Shown here piece after piece: positions 1 through 64,000 of a stretch of 64,000 bases of DNA. Where the stretch lies: IMG/VR virus record IMGVR_UViG_3300033155_000850; one strand, 5' to 3'. The translations under genes and the position numbers were made by a program. How positions within the stretch are numbered: position 1 is the first letter of the stretch; every line of letters starts with the position of its first letter. Under the pieces are notes generated by a model that ran no database searches, had not been told where the DNA came from, and was given only the letters and a program-made list of their open reading frames with translations. This DNA is from an uncultured virus (IMG/VR IMGVR_UViG_3300033155_000850) (taxonomy: Duplodnaviria; Heunggongvirae; Uroviricota; Caudoviricetes).

Positions 1-114
1 ACCAGCGCCTCCCGACCAGCGCCTCCCGACCAGCGCCTCCCGACCAGCGCCTCCCGACCAGCGCCTCCCGACCAGCGCCTCCCGACCAGCGCCTCCCGAC
101 CAGCGCCTCCCGAC
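1..114. repeat. Perfect tandem repeat of 14-bp unit ACCAGCGCCTCCCG (8 copies plus 2 nt; runs off the window start)
   Basis: Read directly; GC-rich and C-skewed against an AT-rich genome. Confidence 0.97.
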
Positions 115-19494: not shown

Positions 19495-19886
19495 TAGTTG
19501 ATTGGGCTAAAAAATATATAGGTATGGAGTATAGGTTAGGTCATACTGGGCCTAATTATTTCGACTGTTGGGGTGTAGTGGTTTGGATATACAAACAAGA
19601 ATATGGTATAAATATAAATGAAGGGATATATTATATCACTAAAGAAGACAGAGCTATACAGTTAAGAAAACACATAGGATCATGGATTAAAGTTACAAGA
19701 CCACGACCTGGTGACGGAATACTATTTATGGTAGGAGGTAAACTTCCACATTGCGGTATTTATGTTGGAGATGGTAAAATGTTACACTCATTAGACGAAC
19801 GTATGTCGTGTATTGAGCGGATTAATTCACCAAAATGGAAACCTCGTCTTGAAGGATATTATAGGTACAGCTCGAGTACTAGCTAA
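19491..19886 (+). CDS. NlpC/P60 tail-tip peptidase (gpK-like)
   Basis: FDCWG, PGD..LF, HCGIY.G.G.MLH. Confidence 0.9.
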   Translation: MIVDWAKKYIGMEYRLGHTGPNYFDCWGVVVWIYKQEYGININEGIYYITKEDRAIQLRKHIGSWIKVTRPRPGDGILFMVGGKLPHCGIYVGDGKMLHSLDERMSCIERINSPKWKPRLEGYYRYSSSTS

Positions 19887-22800
19887 ATCTAACTTATTTA
19901 GTGAAGATGTTATGGAGGCATTCGTTCCTTCAGGCATGTCTATACGTGAAATAATTGGAAATGAATTCGATAATTACGCTGTTACTTTAAATAGTGATAT
20001 TATTTCTGCGGATAATTGGGCTACTACGTTTGTAGATACTTTCGATGTATTGACTATAGTTAAAGTACCTGCTGGCGATGATGAAAATGCATTAAAACGT
20101 TTCATATTGGTTATAGTAGTATTGATAATTGCATACTATGCTGGACCAGCTGCCGCCGAAGTAATTGGTGGTACCGCTGAATTTTGGACGTCTGCAATAG
20201 CGTTTGTAGGTACAGTGGTAATAAATTTAGTATTACCACCTTTAATGCCAGATGTGACTGATGGAGCCAGTAAAAGATTAAATTCATTAACAGGTACTAG
20301 AAACTCATTCGCTCCATTTGAACCCATACCTATTTTATACGGTAAACATAGACTGTATCCACCTATAGCCGCATTTCCATATACAGAAGTTATAGGTACG
20401 GATCAATATTTACACATGTTATACTGTGTAGGTTTGGGTACGTATGCTATAGATTCCACTACTATGAAGATAGGGGATACTCCAGCGTCTGAATTTGAAG
20501 GTGTAGATATAGAAATTACTGATCAACCACTTCAGCCAGATATATTCGAGTTACAACAGGCTTTAGTATTTAATCAAGATGCTACACCTGGAGATGAGTT
20601 TACTCGTACCACTGCAGCAGATACAGATACTATAGGGGTTGATTTTGTATTTCCGGGCGGACTAGTAAAAATAGATCAAGAAGATGGCGAAGAAAAACAT
20701 GTACAAATACATTTCAGTGTAGATTTTAGAATATCCGGAAGTGCAGATCCATGGGTTAGTGTTAATACTCTTGACTGGGAAGAAGATACGAACGGCAGGC
20801 TATTAATTGTTGGAGGGTTAAATAATATAACCACTACAGGTAATCCACCTATTAAATCGTCTTCTTACGGTTCTTTACGTGTATCTGGAGTAAATTCTGA
20901 TTGGATCGCAGTAACTAGTAGAAGTAGAGACCCATTGAGATCCGGTTTTACGTTTAGTCCAGCAACTAGGGATACTTGGGACATACGAATAATTCGTCAA
21001 CAGACTAATATAATGGGTGGAGCCGCTGTTACTAGTCTTGACGATATATGGATAGAGATAGCTTCATCTGTAGCATGGACAGCCTTACGAAGTACTAAAT
21101 ATGAAGTAGGTGTATCTATTGGGCCGAATATAGCTACTTTTATAAAGGTACGTATTAGGGCTACTGATCAATTGAACGGTATTATAGATTCATTTAATCT
21201 TATTGCTGAAAAAGAGTTACGTACTTGGGATAAAACAGGTCAAACATTTACTGCGCCCGCAGCTACTAGGGATCCAGCGTGGGCTTATTTAGATATATTA
21301 ACTGGTTTAGGCAACGCTCGTCCTATCACTAACGAGAGTAAATACATATGGCTAGATGAATTATCTGATTGGGCTACAGCTAATGCTTCAGGTGGTAGAT
21401 TCTATGATGAAGTTGTAGACTATCGTACATCTGTATTTAGTGCATTAACTATAGCTTGTGGAGTAGGTAGAGCGTCATTATCTACTAGAGATGGTAAGTG
21501 GACGGTTGTATTAGAACAAGCATCACCTACCCCTGTTCAATTTTTTACGCCAAGAAATAGTTGGAATTTTAGCTCTGTTAAACGATTTGTTAATTTTCCA
21601 CACGCATTTAAAATACGATTCAATGCTGAAGACTCTGATTATCAAGAAGATGAGGTAATAGTATATGATGATGGATTTAATGTGGGTAATGCTGTTGATT
21701 TTGAAGTTATACAATTACAAGGTATAACAGATTCAGATCAAGCTTGGCGTACAGGTAAATATACTTTAGCTGCATTAAGACTTAGACCAGAAATATATAC
21801 ATTTAATTCTGACATAGAGCATATAGTAGCTCAGCGTGGTGATCATGTATTAGCATCTCATGATATACCTCTTTGGGGTAATAGTTACGGTCGTATTAAG
21901 GACATATCTGGTAATGTGGTAACTACGGATGAATCTGTCGATTTGGATGGAGGTACTACATATGTAATGCGTATACGATTAGATGACGGTACATCAGTCA
22001 TAGAAAATCTAACTTTACAGGGCGGGACTGATATATCTAGTCATACGTTTACTCCGTCTATACCTACTGGGGTACAAATCGGTGACCTATATATGATAGG
22101 TGAAGTAGGTTCCGAAACCCAGGAGTTGGTTATAATTTCTGTAGAACCTACTAAGGACCTTTCAGCTAGAATTACGTGTGTGGACCACGACCCAGCTATA
22201 TTGACAGCGGATGATGGAACACCTCCAGTATTTAGCCCTAATATAACTTTACCTATAGATCCTACTCAATTAAGACCGGCACCACCTTTTAACATTACTG
22301 CTAATAGTGATCAAATAGTACATACAGTCGATGGAGCAGGAACATTAAATCCACGTATAGCTGTTAGTTGGGACTTACCTTCTAATTCTAGTGAACGTTG
22401 GCCTGCACTAAGAGCCGAAATTAGATGGAGAGAATATGATGTAACTGTAAACAGCGGAGATGCTGGTACATGGGTTGTAATATTTATACAAAATTCTTTT
22501 CAGGGTTTTGGCATAGTAGAAGATATAAATGTAGGGGTTGAATATGAGATTCAAGTTCGCAGTACTACAGAATATGATATACCTTCTTTATGGAGTGGCG
22601 CTATATTACACACTGTAGGTGGAGCTACTAGACTACCTCCAGCTGTGGACAGCGTAGTTACTAGTGATGAATTTGGAGGAGTAGAAGTAGATGTAGATTT
22701 TACGTCCTTAATAACTCGTACGGGTTCATATCTAGAAATAGCATATGGAACTGTAAATGATAGAAATGATGGTGGAACAGTTATACGACCATTTCCAATA

Positions 22801-25800
22801 CCTAGAAATTTAACAGATATAACCACATTAAAGTTTTTTCTTCCATTTACTAATACTACTGCTAGGTATTTTTGGGCTAGATTAGTAGATATATATGGAT
22901 CTCAATCCACATGGATTCCATCTTCTGCTACAGCGGGAATACTCGGTACTCCTAAACAAGCAGTAGCTACTTTTTACTATATAAAAGCTATAGCTGGTAC
23001 AGCCATAAAAAATGGATCCGGTCAATTAACTGTAGAAGCTCATAAAGTAGATGGAGCTAGTGATATATTACTATCTTCTGGAACTATACAACTGTTCGAT
23101 CCGGGTAATAATATAGTTAATGTGGCTAATGGCTATGTAACTGGATCAGACGGATATACTGGTATACTGGATTCTGGAGATATAACTTCTGAGATAGTTA
23201 TTACTCTTAAAGACGGTGCTGGCGGAACAGTTCTAGATACTATAACACTGGTAGATATAGATGATGGGGCTGACTCTGTTTATGGGTATATAGAAGCTGT
23301 ATCTACACTAGCTTGGGTTAGAGGTCCAAACAACGGAGCTTGGGAACCTCTAGCTACATCTACGAATCTAGATGTTACTATAGTTAAAGGTGGTACTGAT
23401 CAGGCTAGATGGTCTAGACAGATAGATAGAGCCAGTGACGGTCTATTGACGGATGGTGGAGCGACTAATCATGTTAGTACTAATTTAAATACGTCAACTA
23501 TAACACCTACAGTTACTGTATCTGGAAATATCGTAAATGTTCAGTATGACTATTTATCCGGTAGCGATGTAGTTAGTGTATCAGAATCAGTTCATTCTGT
23601 TTTAGGAGGAGCTGGGGCTCAATTTTACTATATAAAACCAATAGACGGTACGGCAATTAAGAACGGATCGGGTCAATTAACTATAGAGGCTCATAAAGTA
23701 GAGGGTTTAGTAGATACATTACTTTCTTCAGGTACAATACAGTTATTCGATCCAGGCGATAATATAGTAAATGTTGCCAATGGTTATGTAACTGGGTCAG
23801 ACGGATATACAGGTATATTAGATTCAGGTGATATTAATGGTGACATAGTAATTACTCTTAAAGATGGTGTCGCAGGTGCTGCATTAGATACTATAACGTT
23901 AGTTGATGTAACCGATGGATTAGATTCAGTTAGTGGGTATATAGAGCCGGAAAACGGTCTAGCTTGGAGACGTGAGGGTACTGATGGAGCCTGGACACCG
24001 TCTCAATTAACTACTGATCTTGATGTTACATTCGTTCAAGGGGGTTCAGATGTAGCGCGTCAAGGCTATAGACTAACCCTTAATAGTACTGATGGGATTA
24101 TAACGGGTACTGTCACAACACACCCGTTATCAGACCTTAATACGTCTCGTATAACTATAACACCTACTGGATCTGGTAGTACTACGGTTTCAGTCAAGTT
24201 TGACTATACTTTTTCCGGTGATGATGCATCGGTATCTGAAACAGTGTTTTCTGTTACAGGCGGTGGTACCGGATTACCTGGTCAATTTACATCATTAGAT
24301 TATGATGATTTAGATACTACACAACTAGCTGCTGGCCAAAGTAGATATGCTATGTTGACAGATGTAGGCGACAATACTACTGGTAGTCAAAATAATTTTC
24401 ATCTTACTGATGGTATATTGATTAATAAGAAAGATATAGATGGAATTAACTATGCTCTTTTGTTTAGTGAAGTTAGAGAAGGGGACAGAATCGTATACAA
24501 AATATCTAATACTAGATGGTTTATCTTTAGTGTAGTTACTACGTTCATTACAATTGGTACAGGTGTAACAGAGGCGTATAAATTTGGAGTAGTATTAGAT
24601 GATTCATTAGATCCAGACCCTACAGCAAATATTTCTACAGCCGCTGGTACTGATGTAAAATTTGAAATATATAGATCACAGTGGGATGTAGATCAAACCG
24701 CTGTTATAGACCCAGACTTTGATCGTACTCCGATAGGTGCTAGTTCTATACCTATGCAATTTACTGATAACGGAATCGCTCCTGATATAATAGATTTCGA
24801 TCATTCTTTTCCAGGTAATAGCACATTTTGGTACGCTACACAAGAAATGGTTGCTAACGGTAGTACGGATGTTAGCCCTGTTTATACCCCAGCCACCGTG
24901 GTTGTAGAGAGTAACGGTGTAAATAGTTCAAATTCCGTAAAAATGAAACTTGGGCCTGTTAGTGCTACGGGTGCTTCAGATTATGTACAGTCTATAATAT
25001 TAACCCATCTTCACAGATTTAGGTCTAATTCAGGCGAATTTAATATAAAGATTAGAGCCAGAAACCAGTATACAGCTCTTAGTTCTGTATTTATAGAGAT
25101 ATACGGTTATTCAGAAGCTCGTAGTACTAGTATTATAGATACAGCTAGTGCAACACTCCAAATTCCAGCTAGTACTACTACTTGGACGGAATATAGTTTA
25201 AAGACCTTTAACGGTACATCAAATCCATCTGCCCAGTATTGGGAAGTTACTATTAGAATGGTCGATATAGAGAGTATACCGTATTCTTCTGGAAATGGTA
25301 ATCTATATGAAATGGAGTTTGACTCTATATTTGTAGATCAAATAATTAAAGATTTTGGTGAAACAGTCATAGCCAGTAAGGTAGAATCTGGATTAGTTCC
25401 AAAAGCTTTGTCTTCTGACGCCTCTAAATATTTACAAGGCGATGGTACGTGGAGTGATCCGCCTGGAGGTTCAGCATCAGATTCTTTCAAAACCCATACT
25501 GTTACAGATACTGATTCAGGATATTCATGGTCTGCTACAGGGTCTATTATAGCGGATTCTACTACGGATATTTTAACTTGGGTTTCTGGTAATGGTATAA
25601 ATATAGATGCTGATTCTGCTAGCGATGCTATTCGTATAACCCTTGGATCACATAATCACTCTGCTGTAGATATTACATCTGGAATTTTAGATGTAGCTAG
25701 AGGTGGTACTAATATAGGGTCATATGCTATAGGTGATATATTATATGCGTCAGCTTCAGGTGTATTATCTAAATTAGCGGTAGGTACTGATACTCACGTA

Positions 25801-28800
25801 CTAACTTTATCCAGTGGATTACCTGTATGGGTTGCACCCTCAAGTGGTTATACTCATCCTAATCATTCGGGTGATGTGACTTCTGTAGGGGACGGTGCAC
25901 AGACTATTGTTATAGATGCAGTCACTTATGCCAAAATGCAGAATGTAATTGCTGATAATAGAATTCTAGGTAATATAGCTGGAGCAGGTGGGATAGTTGC
26001 TGAATTAACCGCTACTCAAGTTCGTACTCTAATTAATGTTGAGGACGGTTCTACAGCAGATCAAACCGCTGGAGAAATCGAGGCAATTGTAAGTCACGAT
26101 AATCTAGTTGATTTTGTCTCGCAAGAACATATACGTTGGGATTTAACTGGTGCCGAAGATGTTCATGCTGATAGATTCGGTGGTGGAGCTAATTTTGCAG
26201 ATACAGTATTAGATAGACCTAGATTCAGTGATTTCGCTACTAAACACCAAGCTGTGGCTGCAATAGCTACTACAGTTATAAGTTATTCAGCAGGTCAATC
26301 AGTCGCTCTTACTATGGGCGCTGTTAATATAAGTACCTTGACCATTAATAGTTGGCCTGCTACCGGTTGGCGTGGTGACATGGAAATAGAAATAATCCAA
26401 AACACTACGCCTCGCACAATCAACTGGTCAGGAGCCAATGTTGAATGGGTAAATGGGGTTCCTCCAGATTTATCGACTGCATCCGAACGCTATATCATAC
26501 ATCTATCTACACGTGATAGTGCTACTGTAGTTATCGGTTCATATGCATCAGATAGTTCGATAGGTGTAGTATCAGTATTTGGTCGTAGCGGTGCTGTAAT
26601 TGCTTTACAAGCTGATTATGATTCATTCTTTTTAACACCCGCTGAAGGTGATGCTGCTTACTCCTTGCTTGGTCATATTCATGATGTATTCGATAGAGCA
26701 ACATCTGTTTTATCCGGTGCAAATGTATTTAGTAATATAGTTGTCACAGATGGTATAGTAACAGCTATTGCTACTCGTGCATTAACTGCTAGCGATGTAG
26801 GGGCCGCAACATCTGGACATTCTCATGTTCCTGCAGATGTAACTTTTGCAGCAACTGATCGTTTCTTAGGTAGAGATACAACTGGTGGCGGTGCTGGTGA
26901 GGAATTAACGGCTGCAGCTGCTCGTGCTATTTTAAACGTTGAAGACGGTTCTACGGCAGATCAGACTTCCATTGTTGGTATTACAGGCACTAAAGCTCAA
27001 TTCGATATTGCTGTTACGGATGGTAATATTGTGTATGTGGGTGGAGCATTCCATGATGGATTCTCAGACTTTGTGGATAATGAACATATAGATTGGACTG
27101 CTGCAGCTGCCGGTATTATACATATAGATAATTACGTTGAAAATGTACCCACGTCTTTGAGTACAGGTACACGAACTTCAATTGCTTACGGTATTACTAG
27201 CGATGGTGGTGCGGATGATATTTCTCTTTTAGAGGCTACTACTAGTCTTGCGGGTTTATTAGGTTCTGCAAAGTGGGATGAAATTGTAGCTAATACCTTA
27301 AAAATTACGAATGCAAATCATACCGGTGATGTAACTGGAGCAACTGTTTTAACTATAGGAGCCCTTAAAATATCTACGGGTATGGTTCAAATTGATGCAA
27401 TTACTTATGCCAAGATACAGAATATAGTAGACGATGATAGAATTTTAGGCAATGTGGCTGGAGCAGGTGGAATAGTAACTGAACTCACTGCTACACAAGT
27501 TCGTACTATGATCAATGTAGCAGATGGAGCTACAGTAGATCAAACCTCCATAGTCGGTATTACAGGCACTAAAGCTCAATTCGATATTGCTGTTACGGAT
27601 GGTAATATCGTGTATGTGGGTGGAGCATTCCATGATGGATTCTCAGACTTTGTATCTCAAGAACATATACGTTGGGATTTAACTGGGGCTGAAGATGTCC
27701 ATGCTGATCGTTTTGCTAACGCTCCCGTTCAGTCAGTATTCGGACGTTCATCTACTGTCATAGCTGTAATCGGTGATTATGCCGCTATAGCAGAAATTTT
27801 TACAGTAAAACAAACATTTAAAGCTAGTACAACAGGGTCGGCTAGTATTAAGATACAAGAAGGTGTCGCCCCTACTACCCCAACCAATGGTGACATGTGG
27901 GTAACCGCAGCAGGTGAATTCTTTGCACGTCTTAATGGGGTAAGTGTCGATTTATCACTTGGCGCGGTTGATTCAGTATTTGGTAGAAGTGGGGCGGTTG
28001 TTGCGACCATAGGAGATTACGCCGCTATTGCAGAAGTCTATTCAGTCTTACAAACATTTAATGCTGGAATAAGCATGGCCGATTCGTTATTGGACCGTGC
28101 GCGATTAGGTGACTTTGCAATCAAGCATCAAGTGGTTGCTGCGATTGCTACAACTGTTATTAGCTATAGTGATGGTCAATCAGTACTATTGACGATGAGC
28201 GCGGTCAACATAGATACGTTGACACTAAATAATTGGCCAGCGACTGGGTGGCTCGGGCAGTACGAAATTGAAATTGCACAGGGAGCAACGCCACGCACTA
28301 TTACATGGCCTGGTGTTATTGAATGGGTAAATGGAGTTCCTCCAGATTTATCGACCGCGAATGAGACATACATAATTCATCTGTCGACGCGGGATAATGG
28401 TACAGGAATTATCGGATCATATGCCGCTGACAGTTCGGCGGGAGTCACTTCGGTATTCGGTCGATCCGGTGCGGTCGTCGCGCTACAGGCTGATTATGAT
28501 TCGTTTTTCCTGACACCGGCAGAAGGCGACGCGGCCTATTCGATGTTGAGTCATACCCACGACAGAATTTCTGTATTTGACAACAGGGCCGCAGGAGATG
28601 TAACGCCAGACGGTCTGCCAGATAAGACTATATATGCGACGTTTACCGACGATATCGTTGGAAGTGTAAATGTATGGGATGCAGTGATTAACGTAGCAGG
28701 TTGGGCCACTGGATACTCTGCTTGGCAGTTGATGTCAAATTCCGGAAATGATGGTGACGGTACAGATAGTTTGTATTTTAGACATGGCCAGACTACAACG

Positions 28801-29427
28801 TGGGGTGCGCTCCGTAAGATTTGGGATGACTCTCACTTTGATATCGCTGACTATACTCCGACATCTGGACTGAGTATTACTAATTGGAACACAGCTTACG
28901 GTTGGGGCGACCATGCTTCCGGTGGGTACGCGGATGCCGGGGGCGCTTTCCATGATAGTTTCTCTGACTTTATATCACAAGAACATATTAGATGGGATAA
29001 TACTGGCGCTGAAGATATTCATGCGGATCGATTAAGTAGTGGCGCCAATATGGCGGATTCTATACTGGATCGTCCACATATTAGTGATTTTGCTATCGAA
29101 GATCAAGTCGTAACAGGTATAGCCAGTACGACTATCAACTACAGTTCCGGTCAATCTGTTCAATTAAATTTAAGTGCTGCAAACATAACTACGTTAACCT
29201 TAAGTAATTGGCCGGCAACAGGTCGTTTAGGGCAAATAGAGATAGAGGTTACACAAGGGTCTACTCCTCGTACTGTAGCATGGGATACAGCGTTAACAGG
29301 GACTATTGATTGGGCTGGCGGAACTGGGCCAGATCTTAGTACAGCCAATGGTAAATTTCTAGTTATGTTACGAAGTCGTGATGCTTTAACTAGTATCATA
29401 GGGACATTTACGGAGAACTGTAGCTAA
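19813..29427 (+). CDS. Giant tail-tip/central fibre protein (gpI/gpJ-like, Fn3-like region, repeated C-terminal modules); start uncertain
   Basis: PIPILYGKHR, V.IRATDQLNG, .PAWAYLD.L, FTPRNSW; 3204 aa with internal duplications. Confidence 0.88.
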   Translation: MSGLIHQNGNLVLKDIIGTARVLAKSNLFSEDVMEAFVPSGMSIREIIGNEFDNYAVTLNSDIISADNWATTFVDTFDVLTIVKVPAGDDENALKRFILVIVVLIIAYYAGPAAAEVIGGTAEFWTSAIAFVGTVVINLVLPPLMPDVTDGASKRLNSLTGTRNSFAPFEPIPILYGKHRLYPPIAAFPYTEVIGTDQYLHMLYCVGLGTYAIDSTTMKIGDTPASEFEGVDIEITDQPLQPDIFELQQALVFNQDATPGDEFTRTTAADTDTIGVDFVFPGGLVKIDQEDGEEKHVQIHFSVDFRISGSADPWVSVNTLDWEEDTNGRLLIVGGLNNITTTGNPPIKSSSYGSLRVSGVNSDWIAVTSRSRDPLRSGFTFSPATRDTWDIRIIRQQTNIMGGAAVTSLDDIWIEIASSVAWTALRSTKYEVGVSIGPNIATFIKVRIRATDQLNGIIDSFNLIAEKELRTWDKTGQTFTAPAATRDPAWAYLDILTGLGNARPITNESKYIWLDELSDWATANASGGRFYDEVVDYRTSVFSALTIACGVGRASLSTRDGKWTVVLEQASPTPVQFFTPRNSWNFSSVKRFVNFPHAFKIRFNAEDSDYQEDEVIVYDDGFNVGNAVDFEVIQLQGITDSDQAWRTGKYTLAALRLRPEIYTFNSDIEHIVAQRGDHVLASHDIPLWGNSYGRIKDISGNVVTTDESVDLDGGTTYVMRIRLDDGTSVIENLTLQGGTDISSHTFTPSIPTGVQIGDLYMIGEVGSETQELVIISVEPTKDLSARITCVDHDPAILTADDGTPPVFSPNITLPIDPTQLRPAPPFNITANSDQIVHTVDGAGTLNPRIAVSWDLPSNSSERWPALRAEIRWREYDVTVNSGDAGTWVVIFIQNSFQGFGIVEDINVGVEYEIQVRSTTEYDIPSLWSGAILHTVGGATRLPPAVDSVVTSDEFGGVEVDVDFTSLITRTGSYLEIAYGTVNDRNDGGTVIRPFPIPRNLTDITTLKFFLPFTNTTARYFWARLVDIYGSQSTWIPSSATAGILGTPKQAVATFYYIKAIAGTAIKNGSGQLTVEAHKVDGASDILLSSGTIQLFDPGNNIVNVANGYVTGSDGYTGILDSGDITSEIVITLKDGAGGTVLDTITLVDIDDGADSVYGYIEAVSTLAWVRGPNNGAWEPLATSTNLDVTIVKGGTDQARWSRQIDRASDGLLTDGGATNHVSTNLNTSTITPTVTVSGNIVNVQYDYLSGSDVVSVSESVHSVLGGAGAQFYYIKPIDGTAIKNGSGQLTIEAHKVEGLVDTLLSSGTIQLFDPGDNIVNVANGYVTGSDGYTGILDSGDINGDIVITLKDGVAGAALDTITLVDVTDGLDSVSGYIEPENGLAWRREGTDGAWTPSQLTTDLDVTFVQGGSDVARQGYRLTLNSTDGIITGTVTTHPLSDLNTSRITITPTGSGSTTVSVKFDYTFSGDDASVSETVFSVTGGGTGLPGQFTSLDYDDLDTTQLAAGQSRYAMLTDVGDNTTGSQNNFHLTDGILINKKDIDGINYALLFSEVREGDRIVYKISNTRWFIFSVVTTFITIGTGVTEAYKFGVVLDDSLDPDPTANISTAAGTDVKFEIYRSQWDVDQTAVIDPDFDRTPIGASSIPMQFTDNGIAPDIIDFDHSFPGNSTFWYATQEMVANGSTDVSPVYTPATVVVESNGVNSSNSVKMKLGPVSATGASDYVQSIILTHLHRFRSNSGEFNIKIRARNQYTALSSVFIEIYGYSEARSTSIIDTASATLQIPASTTTWTEYSLKTFNGTSNPSAQYWEVTIRMVDIESIPYSSGNGNLYEMEFDSIFVDQIIKDFGETVIASKVESGLVPKALSSDASKYLQGDGTWSDPPGGSASDSFKTHTVTDTDSGYSWSATGSIIADSTTDILTWVSGNGINIDADSASDAIRITLGSHNHSAVDITSGILDVARGGTNIGSYAIGDILYASASGVLSKLAVGTDTHVLTLSSGLPVWVAPSSGYTHPNHSGDVTSVGDGAQTIVIDAVTYAKMQNVIADNRILGNIAGAGGIVAELTATQVRTLINVEDGSTADQTAGEIEAIVSHDNLVDFVSQEHIRWDLTGAEDVHADRFGGGANFADTVLDRPRFSDFATKHQAVAAIATTVISYSAGQSVALTMGAVNISTLTINSWPATGWRGDMEIEIIQNTTPRTINWSGANVEWVNGVPPDLSTASERYIIHLSTRDSATVVIGSYASDSSIGVVSVFGRSGAVIALQADYDSFFLTPAEGDAAYSLLGHIHDVFDRATSVLSGANVFSNIVVTDGIVTAIATRALTASDVGAATSGHSHVPADVTFAATDRFLGRDTTGGGAGEELTAAAARAILNVEDGSTADQTSIVGITGTKAQFDIAVTDGNIVYVGGAFHDGFSDFVDNEHIDWTAAAAGIIHIDNYVENVPTSLSTGTRTSIAYGITSDGGADDISLLEATTSLAGLLGSAKWDEIVANTLKITNANHTGDVTGATVLTIGALKISTGMVQIDAITYAKIQNIVDDDRILGNVAGAGGIVTELTATQVRTMINVADGATVDQTSIVGITGTKAQFDIAVTDGNIVYVGGAFHDGFSDFVSQEHIRWDLTGAEDVHADRFANAPVQSVFGRSSTVIAVIGDYAAIAEIFTVKQTFKASTTGSASIKIQEGVAPTTPTNGDMWVTAAGEFFARLNGVSVDLSLGAVDSVFGRSGAVVATIGDYAAIAEVYSVLQTFNAGISMADSLLDRARLGDFAIKHQVVAAIATTVISYSDGQSVLLTMSAVNIDTLTLNNWPATGWLGQYEIEIAQGATPRTITWPGVIEWVNGVPPDLSTANETYIIHLSTRDNGTGIIGSYAADSSAGVTSVFGRSGAVVALQADYDSFFLTPAEGDAAYSMLSHTHDRISVFDNRAAGDVTPDGLPDKTIYATFTDDIVGSVNVWDAVINVAGWATGYSAWQLMSNSGNDGDGTDSLYFRHGQTTTWGALRKIWDDSHFDIADYTPTSGLSITNWNTAYGWGDHASGGYADAGGAFHDSFSDFISQEHIRWDNTGAEDIHADRLSSGANMADSILDRPHISDFAIEDQVVTGIASTTINYSSGQSVQLNLSAANITTLTLSNWPATGRLGQIEIEVTQGSTPRTVAWDTALTGTIDWAGGTGPDLSTANGKFLVMLRSRDALTSIIGTFTENCS

Positions 29428-34059: not shown

Positions 34060-34680
34060 TTAGTTCCCTATTTCTTTGATTATACCACATTCATTACACA
34101 TTACTTGTTTAGTATTTTCTAATATTTTCATATCTAACCATGCAGATGTCCCGTCTTTTCGCATATGTAAACAGTTTTCAGGGTTGGAACTTGATGTTTC
34201 TATTTTACTGTCTGAAAATACTTCCATTTGTTCAGGAAATAACTCCCATCGTCTAATAAAATTAGAAGCTATCCACAGATTTTCACACGTCTTCATATGT
34301 GGATATGGATCTTGGAATACTATACGATCACACCCAGTATTCATTAACAGTTTAACGCAATGAATACATGGTGCTGTTGTACAGTATGCTACCCTTATTT
34401 CTTCAACGTCGTTACATTGGAGGAGAGCATTTGCTTCAGCATGGATAGCTTCGCATTGCTCCAAACCCAATCCTGAATCCATTTCAGAACCTTTACAAGG
34501 TGAGTCAAGGCAGTTATCAACACCCCTAGCACGGCCATTATAACCAGTAGCAACGACATGATTGAGAGAGTTAACAAGGACGCAGCCAACTTGACGACGA
34601 ACGCAAGCACCGCGTAAGGATACAAGACGAGCCATTTTAATAAAGTATTCATCACAATCCATTCGAGTATTTATTTTCAT
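34060..34680 (-). CDS. dCMP deaminase
   Basis: C.RRQVG, TGYNG, HAEANAL, PCIHC Zn-binding motifs. Confidence 0.92.
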   Translation of the reverse strand: MKINTRMDCDEYFIKMARLVSLRGACVRRQVGCVLVNSLNHVVATGYNGRARGVDNCLDSPCKGSEMDSGLGLEQCEAIHAEANALLQCNDVEEIRVAYCTTAPCIHCVKLLMNTGCDRIVFQDPYPHMKTCENLWIASNFIRRWELFPEQMEVFSDSKIETSSSNPENCLHMRKDGTSAWLDMKILENTKQVMCNECGIIKEIGN

Positions 34681-35461
34681 TTATCCAGTCCGTAAAGTGG
34701 TGGTCTACACGATGGTTTATAGAGTTGAAATCCATTAGGTTTAATACTTCTCTTTTATCGTATATTTCTGGGCAGTATACTTCATAATAACCATTTTGAC
34801 CATGTTCTATTAATTTATCTAGCATTTCAAAATGTCGTTCATATACATGAAATGAATCTACTTTATGAGTATATGAACCCATAATCAAGTCATCATAACC
34901 ACTATCTCTTAGCATTACGTATACCATCTCATGTAATACAGAGAAACAAAATGTGTCGTTAGTAAATCCCCATATAGCGTCTTGACTTCTCATATTAACA
35001 CTCATATAGAGATGATTTTCTCTAATACGAAATCCTACGCTATATGTACACACTATATCTACATTCCCTATAAACAAGTGATCTTTATTCAACATAGGAA
35101 TTATTGCTTGACGACTATCTTTATCTTTAATTAACTGGTCTACAACCCAGTTAAATCCATTGGAATTAGGACCAAACCAGTATTGACCGTAATTTGAAAA
35201 CCAAGATCCGTCAGATTGACGTAACTCGCTCCACATACTGGCCGAACTAGTTATACTATCATCCCATTTATCCCCTGTTAGATACCACAGCATTTCGAAT
35301 TTAGCGTAATCTAAATTAAATTCTCTAGCTATATATGATGTGAATTTATCACGTGGACCCATAGTCATCATATAGTTTTGTATCTCTATAATCTTCTTAC
35401 CTCTAGGAGAAGCTATTTTTCCTTTACTTCTTAAATCTTTATAGACGGATAGAAATCTCAT
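34652..35461 (-). CDS. Thymidylate synthase homologue, dCMP hydroxymethylase type
   Basis: DSRQA, catalytic VCT, MRSQDAIWGFTND (Asp as in T4 gp42 GFRND rather than the Asn of dUMP-specific TS), SFHVYERH. Confidence 0.85.
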   Translation of the reverse strand: MRFLSVYKDLRSKGKIASPRGKKIIEIQNYMMTMGPRDKFTSYIAREFNLDYAKFEMLWYLTGDKWDDSITSSASMWSELRQSDGSWFSNYGQYWFGPNSNGFNWVVDQLIKDKDSRQAIIPMLNKDHLFIGNVDIVCTYSVGFRIRENHLYMSVNMRSQDAIWGFTNDTFCFSVLHEMVYVMLRDSGYDDLIMGSYTHKVDSFHVYERHFEMLDKLIEHGQNGYYEVYCPEIYDKREVLNLMDFNSINHRVDHHFTDWINENKYSNGL

Positions 35462-35984
35462 AATCTATTTCCTCTATTAATGATTCAAATGGCCTTACTT
35501 TGAAGTCGTAACGTATTACCCCGGGTAAATCATGCGCCATCATAACATAATTATTGTGGACAATACTGTTTTCTAATTTCATTTTTTCTAAGTCTTTTTT
35601 AGACTCATGCACACCTCTAACATGGTTATCTAAATCTTGACCTGTACACACTATAACTACTGAATCTAACATAGCTACTTTAGTATAATATGCATGCATT
35701 ATCATATCATTTTCATCTAGAGGCGGCATGTTACAAGTATTACTTATTCCAGTAAATCTATCCCATACACATGACGTCATTTTTAACCATGCGCATTGGT
35801 ATATCATACATACTTCAGCATGTTCTCTATCTACGGGTTTAGGCCCTGCTCTAAAAGTGTATATACCGTAATGTTTTCCTAATCTAGTAGATAGAGTAGA
35901 TTTACCCGATGCATCAGCACCCTCTACTATTATGGACCTTTTCTTGGGTTGATCTACCTTTAATGTGGCTACTTTAGGACCCAC
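35439..35984 (-). CDS. Nucleoside monophosphate kinase-like P-loop protein
   Basis: IIVEGADASGKSTL, WDRF. Confidence 0.75.
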   Translation of the reverse strand: MGPKVATLKVDQPKKRSIIVEGADASGKSTLSTRLGKHYGIYTFRAGPKPVDREHAEVCMIYQCAWLKMTSCVWDRFTGISNTCNMPPLDENDMIMHAYYTKVAMLDSVVIVCTGQDLDNHVRGVHESKKDLEKMKLENSIVHNNYVMMAHDLPGVIRYDFKVRPFESLIEEIDYEISIRL

Positions 35985-36429
35985 GATTATTCACCTTATC
36001 TAATATTCTTGCGAATTTAAGTTCAGGGTTAGTCCATGAATCTGGCTTAATAGCATCAGCTGCATCAAACCCTTCACGACCCTCTTTAACCCCTGATTTC
36101 TTAAGTAGATTAGCTTGATGAACTGCATCAAATAAATCACGATGAATAGTTTCACTTATACCGTTTTTATAGAATATCCCTAGTAAAAAATACTCTAAAT
36201 CTATTAGACCGTCTAATATACCTATAAAATCACCTTGTTTAAATGCTAATTCGATTTCGTCTATTTCTTCTCTTAATTGATGCATAGACAGTTTAAATTC
36301 CTCTTCAGATTGAGGCCCAGGCTTACGTCTATCAATATTCAATATGGTAGAGTTAAAATTAATTACATCTAACAATTGCTTGTTTATATTGATATACTGT
36401 ATATCACTCATGTTATCACCACTGTACAA
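35974..36429 (-). CDS. All-alpha NTP pyrophosphohydrolase (MazG/PRA-PH-like; putative dCTPase)
   Basis: LREE.DE, D.L.DL.Y, VH.AN..K, IKP.SW..P. Confidence 0.82.
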   Translation of the reverse strand: MYSGDNMSDIQYININKQLLDVINFNSTILNIDRRKPGPQSEEEFKLSMHQLREEIDEIELAFKQGDFIGILDGLIDLEYFLLGIFYKNGISETIHRDLFDAVHQANLLKKSGVKEGREGFDAADAIKPDSWTNPELKFARILDKVNNRGS

Positions 36430-38069
36430 ACCCTCTGTTTAATATCATTACTAAGTTGGAACTGGTGACATCTAAGTATATCTTGCATACTATAACATAT
36501 AGGCATACCGTGTTCATTAAATGAGGTGTTTATTAACATCTCATTAGGCATGTCAGTCAATATCGGATGCAACCAGTGATGAAGACCTATTATCTGTGGA
36601 CGACCCGTATAACCTGTAGGATTATCTGGATCATATATAGGTACTCTATGAGCAGCTCCCATAAACGAGTCATCCATTACTCTGTAATCTCTAGTACATA
36701 CCATATACTCTAGAGATTGGTGTATTTTACCTACATCTTTAAATAATCTATTAGCTCCTTTACGAGTAATTATGGGTGCCATTGGCATTATAGTGGACCT
36801 TCCATTAAGGGTATTTATATACTCTACATTAGATACACTGGGTTGAGCTAACGTAGTCGTATTTCCTAATGCTCTAGAACCGTATTCCATGTGACCCTTT
36901 ATCACATTAACTATAAAGTCTTGATTTAATAGATTAGTTATAAAAGGAATATATTCTTTAGGGTCATCAGTAAACATATGAAGCCTGTCTTCTTCTATAG
37001 AGTATATTTCTCTAGGCCCCCAACAAAGTGTATCTGGCCATATGAAATCGCTTTCAATAGCTTGGTATAATCCTATAGCTGCGCCTTGATCTCCAGCTAA
37101 AGGCATTATACACATTTCACCGGGTATAGATTTGGCTAGTTCATTATTCAGTTTCACATTCATGAACAATCCACCTACGACTATCAGATTGTACACGTTT
37201 AAGTCTTTAACTATGGTTTTAACTGTGTGTTCTAATCTAGTCTGTACGTAGTACGCTATCACAGCTTTCTTACCGTCTATAGAGTACTGAGGTCCTATAT
37301 CCATTTCATTTAATATTTTTTGAAAGTGTATAGCATACTGGTATCTTAATGCCGGTAAAGCATCCATAGCTAAAAGCGGATCGAATTGATCCACTATGTC
37401 TCCACTACGAATAATATCTAAATGGACCTTTGAATTTTTTTCAGCTAACTCAGATAATTTCTCTATCTCATCATCTATTAAGAAGTCACTGATATGAGCC
37501 TCATGTCCTAATAGCTTATATTCATCTTGGTTTTCTTTTAGCTCTAGAAAAGCTGTAGCGTATTGATACATAAGCCCCAAACTAGACTCATAACCAAAGG
37601 ACCTTTGGAATATTTTGGGTTCGCCATGATCATCTAGTTTATATAGAGACATAGTTTCACCAAAATTACCAAATCCGTCTGCTACCATGACCACTGTATC
37701 TCCTCTAGGAAATAACGGTCCGGCAAATGATATGGCGGACCATGCATGAGCGTCATGATGGGTAAACTCCATAGATACTGAGTGTATTTTAGCTTCTGGA
37801 ATATTGAAATGAAAGAATAAAGGGTCAAAATATTTATCATGTATATCAGGTAATTTACCGTCTACAAACCAGTGTGATATATAGATTTTAGCGATGTTTT
37901 CAAATGTCTCTGGATACAAATGTTTCAATTGTTCTATAGAGCATCGTGGAAACGAGCTATCACTTTTTTGTTTAGTTAATCGCTCTTCTTCAAAACCTGC
38001 AACTACATGACCGTTACGTACTAATATAGCACTAGAATTGTGACCTAATGATAGTAATAATCTAGACAT
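36408..38069 (-). CDS. O-carbamoyltransferase (NodU/CmcH/TobZ family)
   Basis: GHNSSA, EEER, HH.AHA, DG.G, SLG..Y, GG..MN..LN, GD.G.AIG, EYG.RALGN, NTSFN.HG. Confidence 0.92.
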   Translation of the reverse strand: MSRLLLSLGHNSSAILVRNGHVVAGFEEERLTKQKSDSSFPRCSIEQLKHLYPETFENIAKIYISHWFVDGKLPDIHDKYFDPLFFHFNIPEAKIHSVSMEFTHHDAHAWSAISFAGPLFPRGDTVVMVADGFGNFGETMSLYKLDDHGEPKIFQRSFGYESSLGLMYQYATAFLELKENQDEYKLLGHEAHISDFLIDDEIEKLSELAEKNSKVHLDIIRSGDIVDQFDPLLAMDALPALRYQYAIHFQKILNEMDIGPQYSIDGKKAVIAYYVQTRLEHTVKTIVKDLNVYNLIVVGGLFMNVKLNNELAKSIPGEMCIMPLAGDQGAAIGLYQAIESDFIWPDTLCWGPREIYSIEEDRLHMFTDDPKEYIPFITNLLNQDFIVNVIKGHMEYGSRALGNTTTLAQPSVSNVEYINTLNGRSTIMPMAPIITRKGANRLFKDVGKIHQSLEYMVCTRDYRVMDDSFMGAAHRVPIYDPDNPTGYTGRPQIIGLHHWLHPILTDMPNEMLINTSFNEHGMPICYSMQDILRCHQFQLSNDIKQRVCTVVIT

Positions 38070-55056: not shown

Positions 55057-55153
55057 ATTCTACTGTATAAGTACACCAATGTACACAGGGTCCTTAAAGG
55101 ATGCGGATCCCCTTTAGGACCCAGTATACATAGGTGTATCTTCATAGTAGAAT
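55057..55153. promoter_or_regulatory. Divergent promoter pair: (-) TGTACA-N17-TAGAAT at 55085-55057; (+) TATACA-N17-TAGAAT at 55125-55153
   Basis: Both have exact 17-nt spacers and AGGACCC upstream elements; strand-switch point. Confidence 0.8.
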
Positions 55154-56729: not shown

Positions 56730-56823
56730 GGATTCTGTGTACATTGATGATAATCTATGATACGTACGCGCGCGCGTAAATATATAAGAGTAACCTTTAA
56801 GGAATCGTCTGTTAAGGATTCTG

Positions 56824-56852
56824 TGTACATTGCTGATTATTCGCAGTAGAAT
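56824..56852 (+). promoter_or_regulatory. Phage promoter TGTACA-N17-TAGAAT driving the small ORF and ncRNA array
   Basis: Family consensus; partial duplicate at 56727-56760. Confidence 0.8.
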
Positions 56853-56881: not shown

Positions 56882-57076
56882 ATGAATACACCCAAAACAA
56901 AAATAGGAATAATCAAGGATTATTTCGGCATTATTCCAGACACTACCACAAAAGATTTTATGAATGAGATAAAAGAACTGAGTCTTGAAGAACGATTAGA
57001 ACTAGCTCAAGGCGCGGCCGCAAATATGGGTTTATCTCAGGATAAAGTAGATTTTCCGTTAACCGGAACAGGTTAA
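56882..57076 (+). CDS. Small conserved phage protein
   Basis: IKDYFG....F..EIKELS.EER.ELA. Confidence 0.7.
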   Translation: MNTPKTKIGIIKDYFGIIPDTTTKDFMNEIKELSLEERLELAQGAAANMGLSQDKVDFPLTGTG

Positions 57077-58592
57077 GGAGAGGCGACGGTAAGAATGCAC
57101 TTCCGTACTGACAATGGTAGACGTACTACTCAGTCCTCTGGTGAGTTACACTGCTTTTATCGAGGTATGTTAAAGCCAGAAAGCAGACTTAGCAATCTGC
57201 CCTCTTTTAAATGTAGTCATATCCGGGTTGACCTCCGGTAGGTCATATGACGGCTCTCAAATCAAGAGAGAGTGCATGCGAGGTTTCGCCTTTTAGGGGC
57301 CGGCTCGAATCTAGCCGTTTATAGGGTTTATATGCTCGCGATCCTGTATGAATTGATATGATTAAGAACTATATTAACAGTGTCCGGGAAGGAGCAACCG
57401 TCCGTAGGATAGACCAACTCCACATACGAGCATTTGAGCGTAGTAAGGTCGTTTGAAGATTACGGGATACATTGTTATAAAGATAGCCACTACCATCAGA
57501 TAGAGCTGTCTTCAGGGTAGGTAGACTTGCCTGTTACGAGCTACCTGAGCTTTGGTTCATAGCGATAAAAGCGAATGAACAAGAGGTGTTCTATAGAATG
57601 GCGGTTTGCTCACCCTTTCCGCTTAGTAGAAGGCCCACGCGCTACCGAGAAATGCGTTAAATCGGGAGTCGTTGACATCGACAAAAGTCCTGGTACTGGC
57701 CTAATAAGTCGGTATCAGGCAGATTTTCGTTGGTACCTTATGGCTGTATGATGTTATGTTAGTAAGTATTTCGGACGCGGGTTCGATTCCCGCCACCTCC
57801 ACCACAATGGGGGTGATCGGTTTCGACGGTGTACAGGAAGCATGATGGACAGCACGCTTGGTCTCGTAAAGACTACTAAAACAATCGCAAACGATGAAGT
57901 TTACGATCTGCCGTTGGCATTAGCTGCGTAAGCAGTTAAGCTAATAGGCCGGGTCAGGGTCGCCTGGGAACAGAAGGCCCATTGAGCACTAAAACTGCCG
58001 AAAATATCGGTGAAACTCCGATACTCTCGCAATGATGGCCTATAAGGCTAGTGGGGGTTCGTTTAATACTATAGACTTAAGCTATAGGTGAAGACACCGG
58101 CATTTATTAAAGAAATCAAACTAGGCGATTGCTTCTGCCCAGAATCACTAGAATGATAGACTAGTAGTATCCAAACAAGTACAGGGCAATGTGCATATGT
58201 GGAGAGACGCTAGCCATTCAGGAGTCGCATAGCGTCATCTGTTTGAAGACCTAGCGGCCCAGGTCTAGAGGGGCCGCCCCTATTTTCGGGGACGTTGATA
58301 ATACTTGTCAACGCCCTACTGAAAGGGTATGGTTAGCCCGAGCGCAGAAGTAACTGGCCACCATGTCGCCGGATGGATTATGGTCTTATACGGTGGAGGG
58401 GTTGTATTGCACCTGTCTTACCTGTCGTAAGAAGCAATGCCGAGGAGTGTTGGCTACTCAGCTCTTTTACTCAATGATGTAGCTGCGAAATGTGCGCTGT
58501 GGCGTATACATATATAGATCGATACTGTGATATTTTTTATTCTTTTACAGATCGGTCGACGACCCTACTAGCCACAGATAGTAGGAGTCGTT
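57077..58592 (+). ncRNA. Array of structured non-coding RNAs (about 1.5 kb, no ORF of 60 aa or more)
   Basis: Raised GC, many hairpins and pseudoknots separated by short AT linkers; includes tmRNA. Confidence 0.75.
57740..57980 (+). ncRNA. ssrA: Circularly permuted (two-piece type) tmRNA; tag ANDEVYDLPLALAA*
   Basis: T-arm GCGGG-TTCGATT-CCCGC and CACCTCC-A-CCA (ends 57804) precede the 5' end GGGGGTG (57809) with G3.U70; TTTCGAC D-region; tag ORF 57887-57931; outer boundaries approximate. Confidence 0.93.
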
Positions 58593-58605
58593 TAAAGGGG
58601 TAAGT

Positions 58606-58824
58606 ATGTCTGATGTTATTTGGAATAAAGAACCTCCAACACAATCTGGATGGTATTGGTATAAGTCTGCACACGGGCGAATATCAATGGTTTATCTTAG
58701 ACACGGAGATTTTATTACTTCTTTAGTTCAATGTACTATAAAAAATCCGGAGGGTGTATTAGCTACAGATTTTAAAGGTACTTGGTCACTTGAAATTATT
58801 CCTCCTACTGAACCGGGCTATTAA
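58606..58824 (+). CDS. Hypothetical protein
   Basis: W..EPPT.SGWYW motif; RBS. Confidence 0.65.
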   Translation: MSDVIWNKEPPTQSGWYWYKSAHGRISMVYLRHGDFITSLVQCTIKNPEGVLATDFKGTWSLEIIPPTEPGY

Positions 58825-60801: not shown

Positions 60802-60923
60802 CGCGGGATGGCGGAATTGGTAGACGCGCCCAAAGATCTGGGTATAGTGTATAATCCGCGGATTATATGGTTTTTCTAGATAAAACAGCTATTTTGCAGG
60901 TTCAAGTCCTGCTCCCGCTACCA
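60802..60923 (+). tRNA. Atypical 122-nt tRNA-like RNA (no canonical anticodon loop)
   Basis: Acceptor CGCGGGA/TCCCGCT-A-CCA, D-arm GGCGGAATTGGTAGACGC, T-arm GCAGG-TTCAAGT-CCTGC. Confidence 0.8.
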
Positions 60924-63857: not shown

Positions 63858-64000
63858 ATGGATATATTTGCTATAAGATCTACTTCAGATGAGGCTAAAC
63901 ATAAATTACGCGTCGATGATAGTGAATTCACGATCGTAGAATGGCAGGCTATGATAGGTCGTCTATATGCTAAGGCTGCTCGTTTTAGAAAGAAGACTAA
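63858..64000 (+). CDS. Partial hypothetical protein (MDIFAIRSTSDEAKHKLRV...; runs off the window)
   Basis: Open frame to the window end. Confidence 0.55.
   Translation, partial: MDIFAIRSTSDEAKHKLRVDDSEFTIVEWQAMIGRLYAKAARFRKKT

Follow-up and report, generated by a model that had tools for sequence, protein, structure and literature searches.

A complete circularly permuted tmRNA gene on the genome of an uncultured tailed phage

The tmRNA locus and its anatomy

The stretch of viral DNA analysed here (64,000 nucleotides, referred to as the window) carries a complete and intact circularly permuted tmRNA gene on the genome of an uncultured tailed phage. The 3' half of the tRNA-like domain precedes the 5' half, and a short intervening sequence lies between them. 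The gene and its parts are arranged as follows:

57711..57737, plus strand: 5' hairpin before the acceptor piece (7 pairs, probability 0.89-0.99; folding and Rfam alignment)
57743-57747, 57753-57760, 57766-57769 and 57771-57773, plus strand: helix 2, strands of the acceptor piece (Rfam alignment, folding, covariation)
57777..57793, plus strand: T-arm with a canonical TTCGATT loop (sequence by coordinate, Rfam alignment)
57794-57800, plus strand: acceptor 3' strand CACCTCC, followed at 57801-57804 by ACCA, i.e., the discriminator A and an encoded CCA (sequence, folding)
57798, plus strand: T57798, corresponding to U70, paired with G3 (G57811) (sequence)
57805..57808, plus strand: intervening sequence CAAT, 4 nt (sequence)
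57809-57815, plus strand: acceptor 5' strand GGGGGTG with G3 at 57811; a D-loop-like region extends to 57826, with a 3-nt variable part
57827..57853, plus strand: helix 2, strands of the coding piece (Rfam alignment, covariation, folding)
57854..57875, plus strand: reduced pseudoknot 1 (PK1), with a 3-bp stem 57854-57856/57865-57867 and a 5-6-bp stem 57859-57864/57870-57875
57887..57931, plus strand: tag frame ANDEVYDLPLALAA, then TAA at 57929-57931 (ARAGORN, sequence)
57914..57944, plus strand: stop-codon hairpin (H5), pair probability 0.97-1.0 (folding)
57949..57980, plus strand: 3' H-type pseudoknot (PK2), 6+5 bp, with an AACAGAA loop; stem 1 57949-57954/57962-57967, stem 2 57957-57961/57976-57980

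ARAGORN calls a permuted gene (tmRNA*) at 57712-58022 with the tag ANDEVYDLPLALAA, and the Rfam model tmRNA_permuted (RF04321) is matched over its full length (1-213) with 120 bits (E 7.5e-23; gathering cut-off 47), a match far beyond chance. The only other Rfam match within the window is to alpha_tmRNA (RF01849; 84.9 bits); the beta model RF01850 is not among the reported matches for the gene, and no Rfam match to a glnA riboswitch was found in the window. The ARAGORN and Rfam calls rule out a standard one-piece tmRNA (RF00023), which has its 5' half first and four pseudoknots. Sequence and folding together show all parts of the tRNA-like end, i.e., a 7-bp acceptor stem with G3·U70, the discriminator A and CCA. 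The resume codon GCA lies at 57887, directly preceded by ACAATC, and the frame is open from there to the stop and encodes a hydrophobic C-terminus. Two pseudoknots flank the tag frame: PK2 with 6+5 bp, and PK1 reduced to 3+6 bp, of which the second stem folds at 0.85-0.93 and the first (3 bp) is read from the sequence. The initial annotation, made from the sequence alone, had described the permuted order, G3·U70, the GCA resume codon, the stop hairpin and the pseudoknot-like tail and had placed each of them correctly; H5, for which it named an 8-bp core (57920-57927/57932-57939), reaches below that core. The 5' hairpin, PK1 and the exact extent of PK2 are new relative to that annotation. Its proposal of a permuted tmRNA is borne out by both ARAGORN and the permuted model.

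Folding and covariation

In the predicted precursor fold, the acceptor stem forms with pair probabilities of 0.99-1.0, the T-arm with 0.9, and helix 2 (57743-57773 with 57827-57853) with 0.67-0.93; the folding energy of the whole gene lies at z = -2.67 relative to 200 shuffles. Folding also predicts, with p 0.79, a pair between the discriminator A and the T directly before the putative RNase P cut (position -1). Stem 2 of the 3' pseudoknot has a pair probability of 1.0, while stem 1 is rivalled by an extension of H5, as the folding program is unable to form pseudoknots. The hairpin at 57711-57737, which has a counterpart at a comparable position in the alpha_tmRNA model, likely marks or protects the 5' end of the acceptor piece.

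The pairing of helix 2, whose failure to covary the initial annotation had named as a ground for refutation, does covary in homologues. Across 13 family sequences, both sides change in 16 of 29 pairs, 13 of these among the 17 pairs of helix 2; 95.5% of cells pair, as against 39-52% in slid controls, not one shuffle out of 500 attains the observed value on any of the five measures used, and G3·U70 is kept in 13/13. This contrast is overstated, since the structure was derived from the same 13-sequence alignment and the sequences are kin. An alignment-free duplex test on 137 distinct genes points in the same direction and is weaker: helix 2 averages -15.0 kcal/mol with its own partner vs -10.0 kcal/mol with swapped partners, but the own partner is the best one in only 15/137 genes, and the window gene ranks 6th of 137. 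The AACAGAA loop of the 3' pseudoknot occurs in 102 distinct genes out of 194 verified genes, and in 96 of these 102 distinct homologues the pseudoknot has at least 9 bp, compared to a mean of 39 after shuffling.

Phage context and expression

Among the 71 open reading frames (ORFs) of the window, which were scanned with Pfam and PHROGs, those that received a name have functions in phage head, tail, replication, nucleotide metabolism and lysis, including terminase, portal, capsid, tail, DNA polymerase A, primase and endolysin genes; no integrase was found among the 71. The genome is siphophage-like, is larger than 64 kb and extends past position 64000. The capsid shares 57-61% identity with its counterparts in phages of Acinetobacter, Pseudomonas and Xanthomonas, and the polymerase 35% with those of Xp15- and Effie-like phages; judging from these relatives, the host is likely to be a gamma- or betaproteobacterium. 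Among virus records, G001 comes nearest, with 99.9% identity across window positions 1-26617; it carries 6.5 kb extra leftward and stops short of the tmRNA gene. Phage relatives found with the endolysin (ten loci, 34-39% identity) have neither a tmRNA nor a tRNA, and a search with the primase returned no close phage relative, so that the endolysin, primase and virus-record searches gave no close relative of the window phage that carries the tmRNA gene.

Several other parts of the window stand out in their own right. A row of genes on the minus strand (34060-38069), which encode a dCMP deaminase, a thymidylate synthase-like protein, a kinase-like protein, a nucleotide pyrophosphohydrolase and a carbamoyltransferase, looks like a DNA base-modification cluster. 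A central tail fibre (J-like) of 3204 residues (19813-29427, plus strand) far exceeds the 1565 positions of its PHROG profile. At window positions 1-114 and at L463:6540-6660, a tandem 14-base repeat at the left edge is followed by repeated promoter-like units before short ORFs.

The initial annotation had seen no smpB gene, and none was detected among the 71 window ORFs or in any of five viral records, among which are G001 and a pair of complete 39-kb phages whose tmRNA genes have 4-nt spacers; as a control, the search detected SmpB in 10/14 genomes. As SmpB was found neither in the window nor in the five viral records, it is sensible to assume that the RNA would rely on SmpB of the host.

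The tmRNA gene is located in an early-type region, in a stretch without long ORFs, about 0.9 kb downstream of one copy of a promoter-like repeat that occurs eight times. The copies contain TGTACA/GTATAC, mostly with TAGAAT 17 nt later, and the pair at 55074/55116 is divergent:

39575, minus strand: promoter-like repeat copy
55074, minus strand: promoter-like repeat copy
55116, plus strand: promoter-like repeat copy
56729, plus strand: promoter-like repeat copy
56815..56852, plus strand: promoter-like repeat copy, TGTACA-17-TAGAAT, putative nearest promoter of the tmRNA unit
59909, plus strand: promoter-like repeat copy
61626, plus strand: promoter-like repeat copy
63814, plus strand: promoter-like repeat copy

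The eight copies are probably early promoters. The pattern was built from the copies themselves and defined after they had been seen, and a generic sigma-70 scan returned 15 hits vs 13.6 expected, which is not above chance; for both reasons, early expression of the tmRNA is only something that we infer. A weak terminator-like site (57183-57200) lies between the promoter candidate and the gene. Around the gene, about 1.2 kb of extra, GC-richer DNA (57080-57700 and 57990-58600) has local hairpins and no long ORFs; the folding z-scores of the flanks (57060-57735 and 57990-58610) are mostly unremarkable. No other RNA family was found in these flanks, either as an Rfam match or as a match in 457 loci, and the left flank has only a 27-base chance-level match in cultured phages. 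The small ORFs near the tmRNA gene had no Pfam match at the curated cut-off (12/12).

A second RNA of unusual build lies about 3 kb from the tmRNA gene and is separate from it:

60802..60923, plus strand: tRNA-Leu-like RNA of 122 bases without a canonical anticodon arm

This RNA, which was missed by ARAGORN and Rfam, has a Leu-type D-arm, a canonical T-arm, a 6-bp acceptor stem and ACCA, while a 6-nt loop stands where the anticodon loop would be; it also contains a large insert. A frame pattern for it matches at least 113 viral loci; among the matches listed, 104 passed the stem tests, with 86 distinct middles, 2 of them with a canonical anticodon arm.

Spacer and tag

The 4-nt linker had at first been regarded as special, a view that the comparison with other genes does not support. 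When bacterial genomes were scanned with the spacer set to 0-6 nt, at least 120 loci matched; among the matches listed, 67 passed the stem and G·U tests and 53 were dropped. The verified bacterial loci among the matches listed have spacers of 1 nt (1 locus), 2 nt (6), 3 nt (8), 4 nt (24), 5 nt (21) and 6 nt (7); in other words, 39/67 of these short-spacer loci have at most 4 nt, and 15 are shorter than 4 nt. The 4-nt class includes the complete genome of Ca. Accumulibacter phosphatis, Devosia pacifica and Nitrospirillum. A few further members of this class probably stem from phage contigs that were binned with bacteria, as two such genomes also carry a one-piece gene. In a Rhodocyclaceae genome with a 4-nt-spacer gene, by comparison, no one-piece match exceeds the cut-off. 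In viral contigs, 4 nt was found in 9/21 loci with a 0-12-nt pattern, and in 4 of the 105 verified loci among the matches listed from a 0-30-nt scan (at least 120 loci), in which 19-29 nt dominate. A metagenome pattern for the D-loop type of the window gave 4 nt in 11/11 matches. The samples are biased to short spacers; their counts establish 4 nt as a common length but give no overall frequency.

The tag, described initially as non-standard, turns out to be an ordinary viral one. It begins with AND and ends with LAA; most of the one-piece gammaproteobacterial genes sampled have tags of 10 codons, which it exceeds by four residues. A strict rule for AN[DE] tags recovered them from 74/126 viral loci, corresponding to 60 unique tags, among which 14 codons, the length of the window tag, is the commonest length (22/60) and an aromatic residue occupies the position of the window tag's Y in 34/60; ANDSNYDLPLAA and ANDNVYDMPMAA are near twins. 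Flynn et al. reportedly defined the SspB motif in 2001 as the first four tag residues and a tyrosine at position 7, and we take AND together with the aromatic residue at position 7 of the window tag to be a match to it. Hersch et al. are said to have found in 2004 that a few extra residues before LAA relieve a clash between SspB and ClpX; if this is right, the window tag should be degraded no less well than one of 10 codons, and the four extra residues between the SspB motif and ALAA would, if anything, speed up delivery by SspB to ClpXP. No publication on SspB tags with extended spacing was found in the literature. According to PMC3985003, a C-terminal ALAA is a signal for ClpX and ClpA, and in beta- and gammaproteobacteria tags are brought to ClpXP by SspB.

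Origin of the gene

Trees were built from 120-171 columns with a one-piece sample from gamma- and betaproteobacteria only; 7 permuted and all 14 one-piece genes were left out of the first tree, and 3 rows out of the second. In all trees, the window gene falls outside the alphaproteobacterial clade (support 99-100), although AU tests do not reject its being joined to that clade (p 0.19-0.46). The window gene is nearest to T4-like phage genes (L007, 72%; L013, 69%); the trees contain no supported sister relation to the genes of the cultured phages QDWS359, Rb1, JGB6 and DLP_6. The 16 one-piece genes group together without the window gene (99-100 support), and one tree places it with three T4-like phage genes beside them (99/96). 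With one alignment, the AU test rejected a grouping with the Rhodocyclaceae beta genes (p 0.007), whereas a segment-wise alignment left it acceptable (p 0.32, 0.51). A recent independent permutation from a one-piece gammaproteobacterial gene was considered but not upheld: the one-piece clade never included the window gene, and the rejection of a beta grouping vanished on the segment-wise alignment. Among the best 150 matches in 400 gammaproteobacterial genomes, the sole match that crosses the spacer into the 5' half is the known Rhodocyclaceae gene, and the remaining ones are T-arm matches of 33-47 bases. Transfer among phages is the simplest reading of the gene's origin.

A separate observation concerns gammaproteobacterial genomes at or near Nevskiaceae, which carry two-piece tmRNA genes with an alpha-like T-loop and a 4-5-nt spacer. 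In the five genomes concerned (G003, G013, G025, G035, G041), which may be incomplete, the search found no one-piece match above its cut-off; a permuted gene is present in 6/41 relatives, and one of these six (G018) carries both forms. It is possible that the one-piece gene has been replaced in this group.

Possible roles in infection

The best explanation, to which we assign a probability of about 0.8, is that the gene encodes a working two-piece tmRNA of a tailed phage that probably infects a gamma- or betaproteobacterial host. The precursor would be transcribed early from the phage promoter repeat about 0.9 kb upstream. RNase P of the host might then cut between 57808 and 57809, and 3' exonucleases would trim CAAT back to CCA; as the initial annotation had suggested, both ends could reasonably arise from a single cleavage by RNase P followed by trimming at the 3' side. 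The two pieces, presumably held together by the acceptor stem and helix 2, could be charged by AlaRS of the host via G3·U70 and, together with SmpB and EF-Tu of the host, would enter stalled ribosomes, add (A)ANDEVYDLPLALAA and release them, after which ClpXP would destroy the tagged fragment via its C-terminal LAA. The cellular genes with a 4-nt spacer (Ca. Accumulibacter phosphatis, Devosia pacifica, Nitrospirillum) imply that the same spacer length is compatible with function. The most likely purpose would be to add to the cell's ability to rescue ribosomes while infection proceeds and truncated mRNAs accumulate or the tmRNA of the host is lost.

It is possible, though on balance doubtful, that such a trans-translating RNA is kept specifically as a counter-defence, since toxins or RNases of abortive infection systems cut the one-piece tmRNA of the host or fill the cell with cleaved mRNAs; a diverged two-piece copy would escape or buffer the damage. 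This would add a purpose to the best explanation and leave its chemistry unchanged. Related two-piece genes in five of five cultured phages, together with a one-piece gene (198 bits) in an Alcaligenes genome, are consistent with it, as are the early-type region and the anticodon-less tRNA look-alike nearby. However, no family known from defence or anti-defence was found among the ORFs with Pfam and PHROGs, and the literature from 2020 on yielded no published test of such a role for a phage tmRNA. A broader scenario, which we consider a long shot, is that a pool of two-piece genes circulates among unrelated phages (siphophages, temperate phages and T4-like myophages) and is used in one-piece-only hosts as a nuclease-resistant replacement during RNA-cutting defence, with a '+4'-spaced tag for faster clearance by SspB and ClpXP; in some gammaproteobacteria near the Nevskiaceae, genes from such a pool may have taken the place of the one-piece form, and the pool might go back to a permutation event of its own, distinct from the alphaproteobacterial, betaproteobacterial and cyanobacterial ones.

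Instead of rescuing ribosomes, the tRNA-like domain might act as a decoy or competitor that binds SmpB, AlaRS or a nuclease and thereby damps trans-translation of the host. A precedent is described in PMC11915505, where phage DS6A has a tmRNA that lacks a tag and interferes with the endogenous tmRNA when present in E. coli, and the short first stem of PK1 in the window gene would fit as well. We regard this as quite unlikely, because a decoy would need neither an open tag that starts with AND and ends with LAA, nor the stop hairpin, nor the conserved pseudoknot, and because homologues keep such tags (AN[DE] in 74/126 viral loci).

Very unlikely, too, is a neutral passenger or integration-site remnant that was picked up from a host chromosome and is unused. 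Phages often carry ssrA fragments derived from integration (PMC9004378), many of the phage BLAST matches span the 3' end only, and no close relative of the window phage with the gene was found; the window gene, however, is whole and not a 3' fragment, there is no integrase among the 71 ORFs, the nearest sequences are phage genes (72% to L007) and not a cellular gene, and only the Rhodocyclaceae gene crosses the spacer among the best 150 gammaproteobacterial matches. Least probable of all is the idea, raised in the initial annotation, that the tag redirects proteolysis by stabilising rescued proteins or sending them to another protease, for which its four additional residues might speak, but which finds no support in a tag that ends in a normal LAA, with ALAA being a ClpX/ClpA signal (PMC3985003) and 14 codons the modal viral length.

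The locus touches on the question of what phage tmRNAs do, for which PMC9004378 and PMC7162821, as far as these sources bear on it, offer hypotheses only. Structural relatives in cultured phages (vB_Sm_QDWS359, vB_Af_QDWS595) make processing, tagging and benefit testable, and since these carriers have hosts with probably one-piece tmRNAs, so is the function of a phage tmRNA as such. If the counter-defence role were true, ribosome rescue would join the known phage answers to translation-targeting immunity.

Comparison with known systems

Keiler, Shapiro and Williams reportedly described a two-piece tmRNA in Caulobacter crescentus in 2000. This RNA is an experimentally working model (PMC3985003), but it is cellular and has an alpha-type T-loop, unlike the window gene. 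The same source states that two-piece tmRNAs have only PK1 and PK2, are probably matured by RNase P and work in Caulobacter, and their independent origins are summarised in PMC3978253. With the permuted family RF04321, the window gene shares the gene order, the acceptor stem with G3·U70, helix 2, a reduced PK1, the tag and a single 3' pseudoknot, and with the Rhodocyclaceae genes it shares the 4-nt spacer; it differs from cellular permuted tmRNAs in being located on a phage. In subtype, the gene looks mixed: beta-type genes have the canonical T-loop and the GGCTGTA/ACAGC helix of the window gene, but its AACAGAA pseudoknot scores on the alpha model RF01849 (84.9 bits). The alphaproteobacterial loci compared have a T-loop of the GGCAGTA type, in contrast to the canonical TTCGATT loop found here. 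Given this canonical T-loop and a place in the trees that lies beyond the alpha clade (support 99-100), the gene was not assigned to the alphaproteobacterial subtype, with which it has just the 3' pseudoknot in common.

Carriage of such genes by phages, which the initial annotation did not mention as known, is already published. Buchholz et al. (2022) describe the two-piece ssrA of phage Melnitz, and two-piece calls by ARAGORN make up 53 of the 133 unique phage tmRNAs in their compilation, including Melnitz, Mosig, HTVC008M, S-CAM1, the phiCbK group, Mendera and PHB04; the table also covers siphophages as well as Stenotrophomonas and Bordetella phages (PMC9004378). There, too, ssrA fragments are reported as a frequent trace of integration, and a role in ribosome upkeep or protein recycling is proposed without a test. 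These genes resemble the window gene in that a complete permuted ssrA is found on a phage, and the role is hypothetical in both cases; the window phage stands apart as an uncultured, siphophage-like genome of more than 64 kb without a glnA riboswitch match. The compilation by Nawrocki et al. contains 11,946 sequences of the permuted type and 79 from phages (PMC11915505), and Al-Shayeb et al. report tmRNA and SmpB in huge phages (PMC7162821). A published test of a phage two-piece tmRNA was not found in the literature. The window gene adds one phage two-piece tmRNA to this published class, and its spacer and tag are ordinary for the group.

Among phages with 4-nt spacers, a subfamily of tmRNAs with an insertion of about 30 nt in the PK1 region was observed (L004, L011, L017, L273, L275, L279-L281), and several of its genes adjoin SNF2 helicase, repressor or terminase genes. 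In the GenBank stretches examined, the tmRNAs of JGB6, vB_Sm_QDWS359, vB_Af_QDWS595, Rb1, PHB04, DLP_6 and XacN1 are unannotated or lie under a hypothetical CDS.

The cultured phages provide the closest material for comparison. Full permuted genes (RF04321, 103-114 bits) are present in five of five cultured phages that were picked from BLAST matches and checked, i.e., Xanthomonas phages JGB6 and Rb1, Stenotrophomonas phage vB_Sm_QDWS359, Alcaligenes phage vB_Af_QDWS595 and Bordetella phage PHB04. An Alcaligenes genome has a one-piece gene, the Xanthomonas, Stenotrophomonas and Bordetella hosts presumably have one as well, and the hosts of these phages thus probably use a one-piece tmRNA; a two-piece gene on a phage accordingly does not imply a two-piece host. 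The helix-2 signature of the window gene, TATGG[CT]TGTATGA ... GGACA[GA]C, recurs in vB_Sm_QDWS359 (Mesyanzhinovviridae), Rb1, JGB6 and DLP_6, and also in Mendera; the spacers of these five lie between 31 and 110 nt. The first four share further features with the window gene, namely a canonical T-loop, an AND..Y/F tag that ends in AA, and a location in a non-coding island. They differ from it in the type of the 3' pseudoknot and in the spacer, which measures 110, 107, 86 and 31 nt, respectively, compared to 4 nt in the window, and which forms hairpins in the two cases that were folded; across the cultured phages measured, spacers range from 31 to 114 nt.
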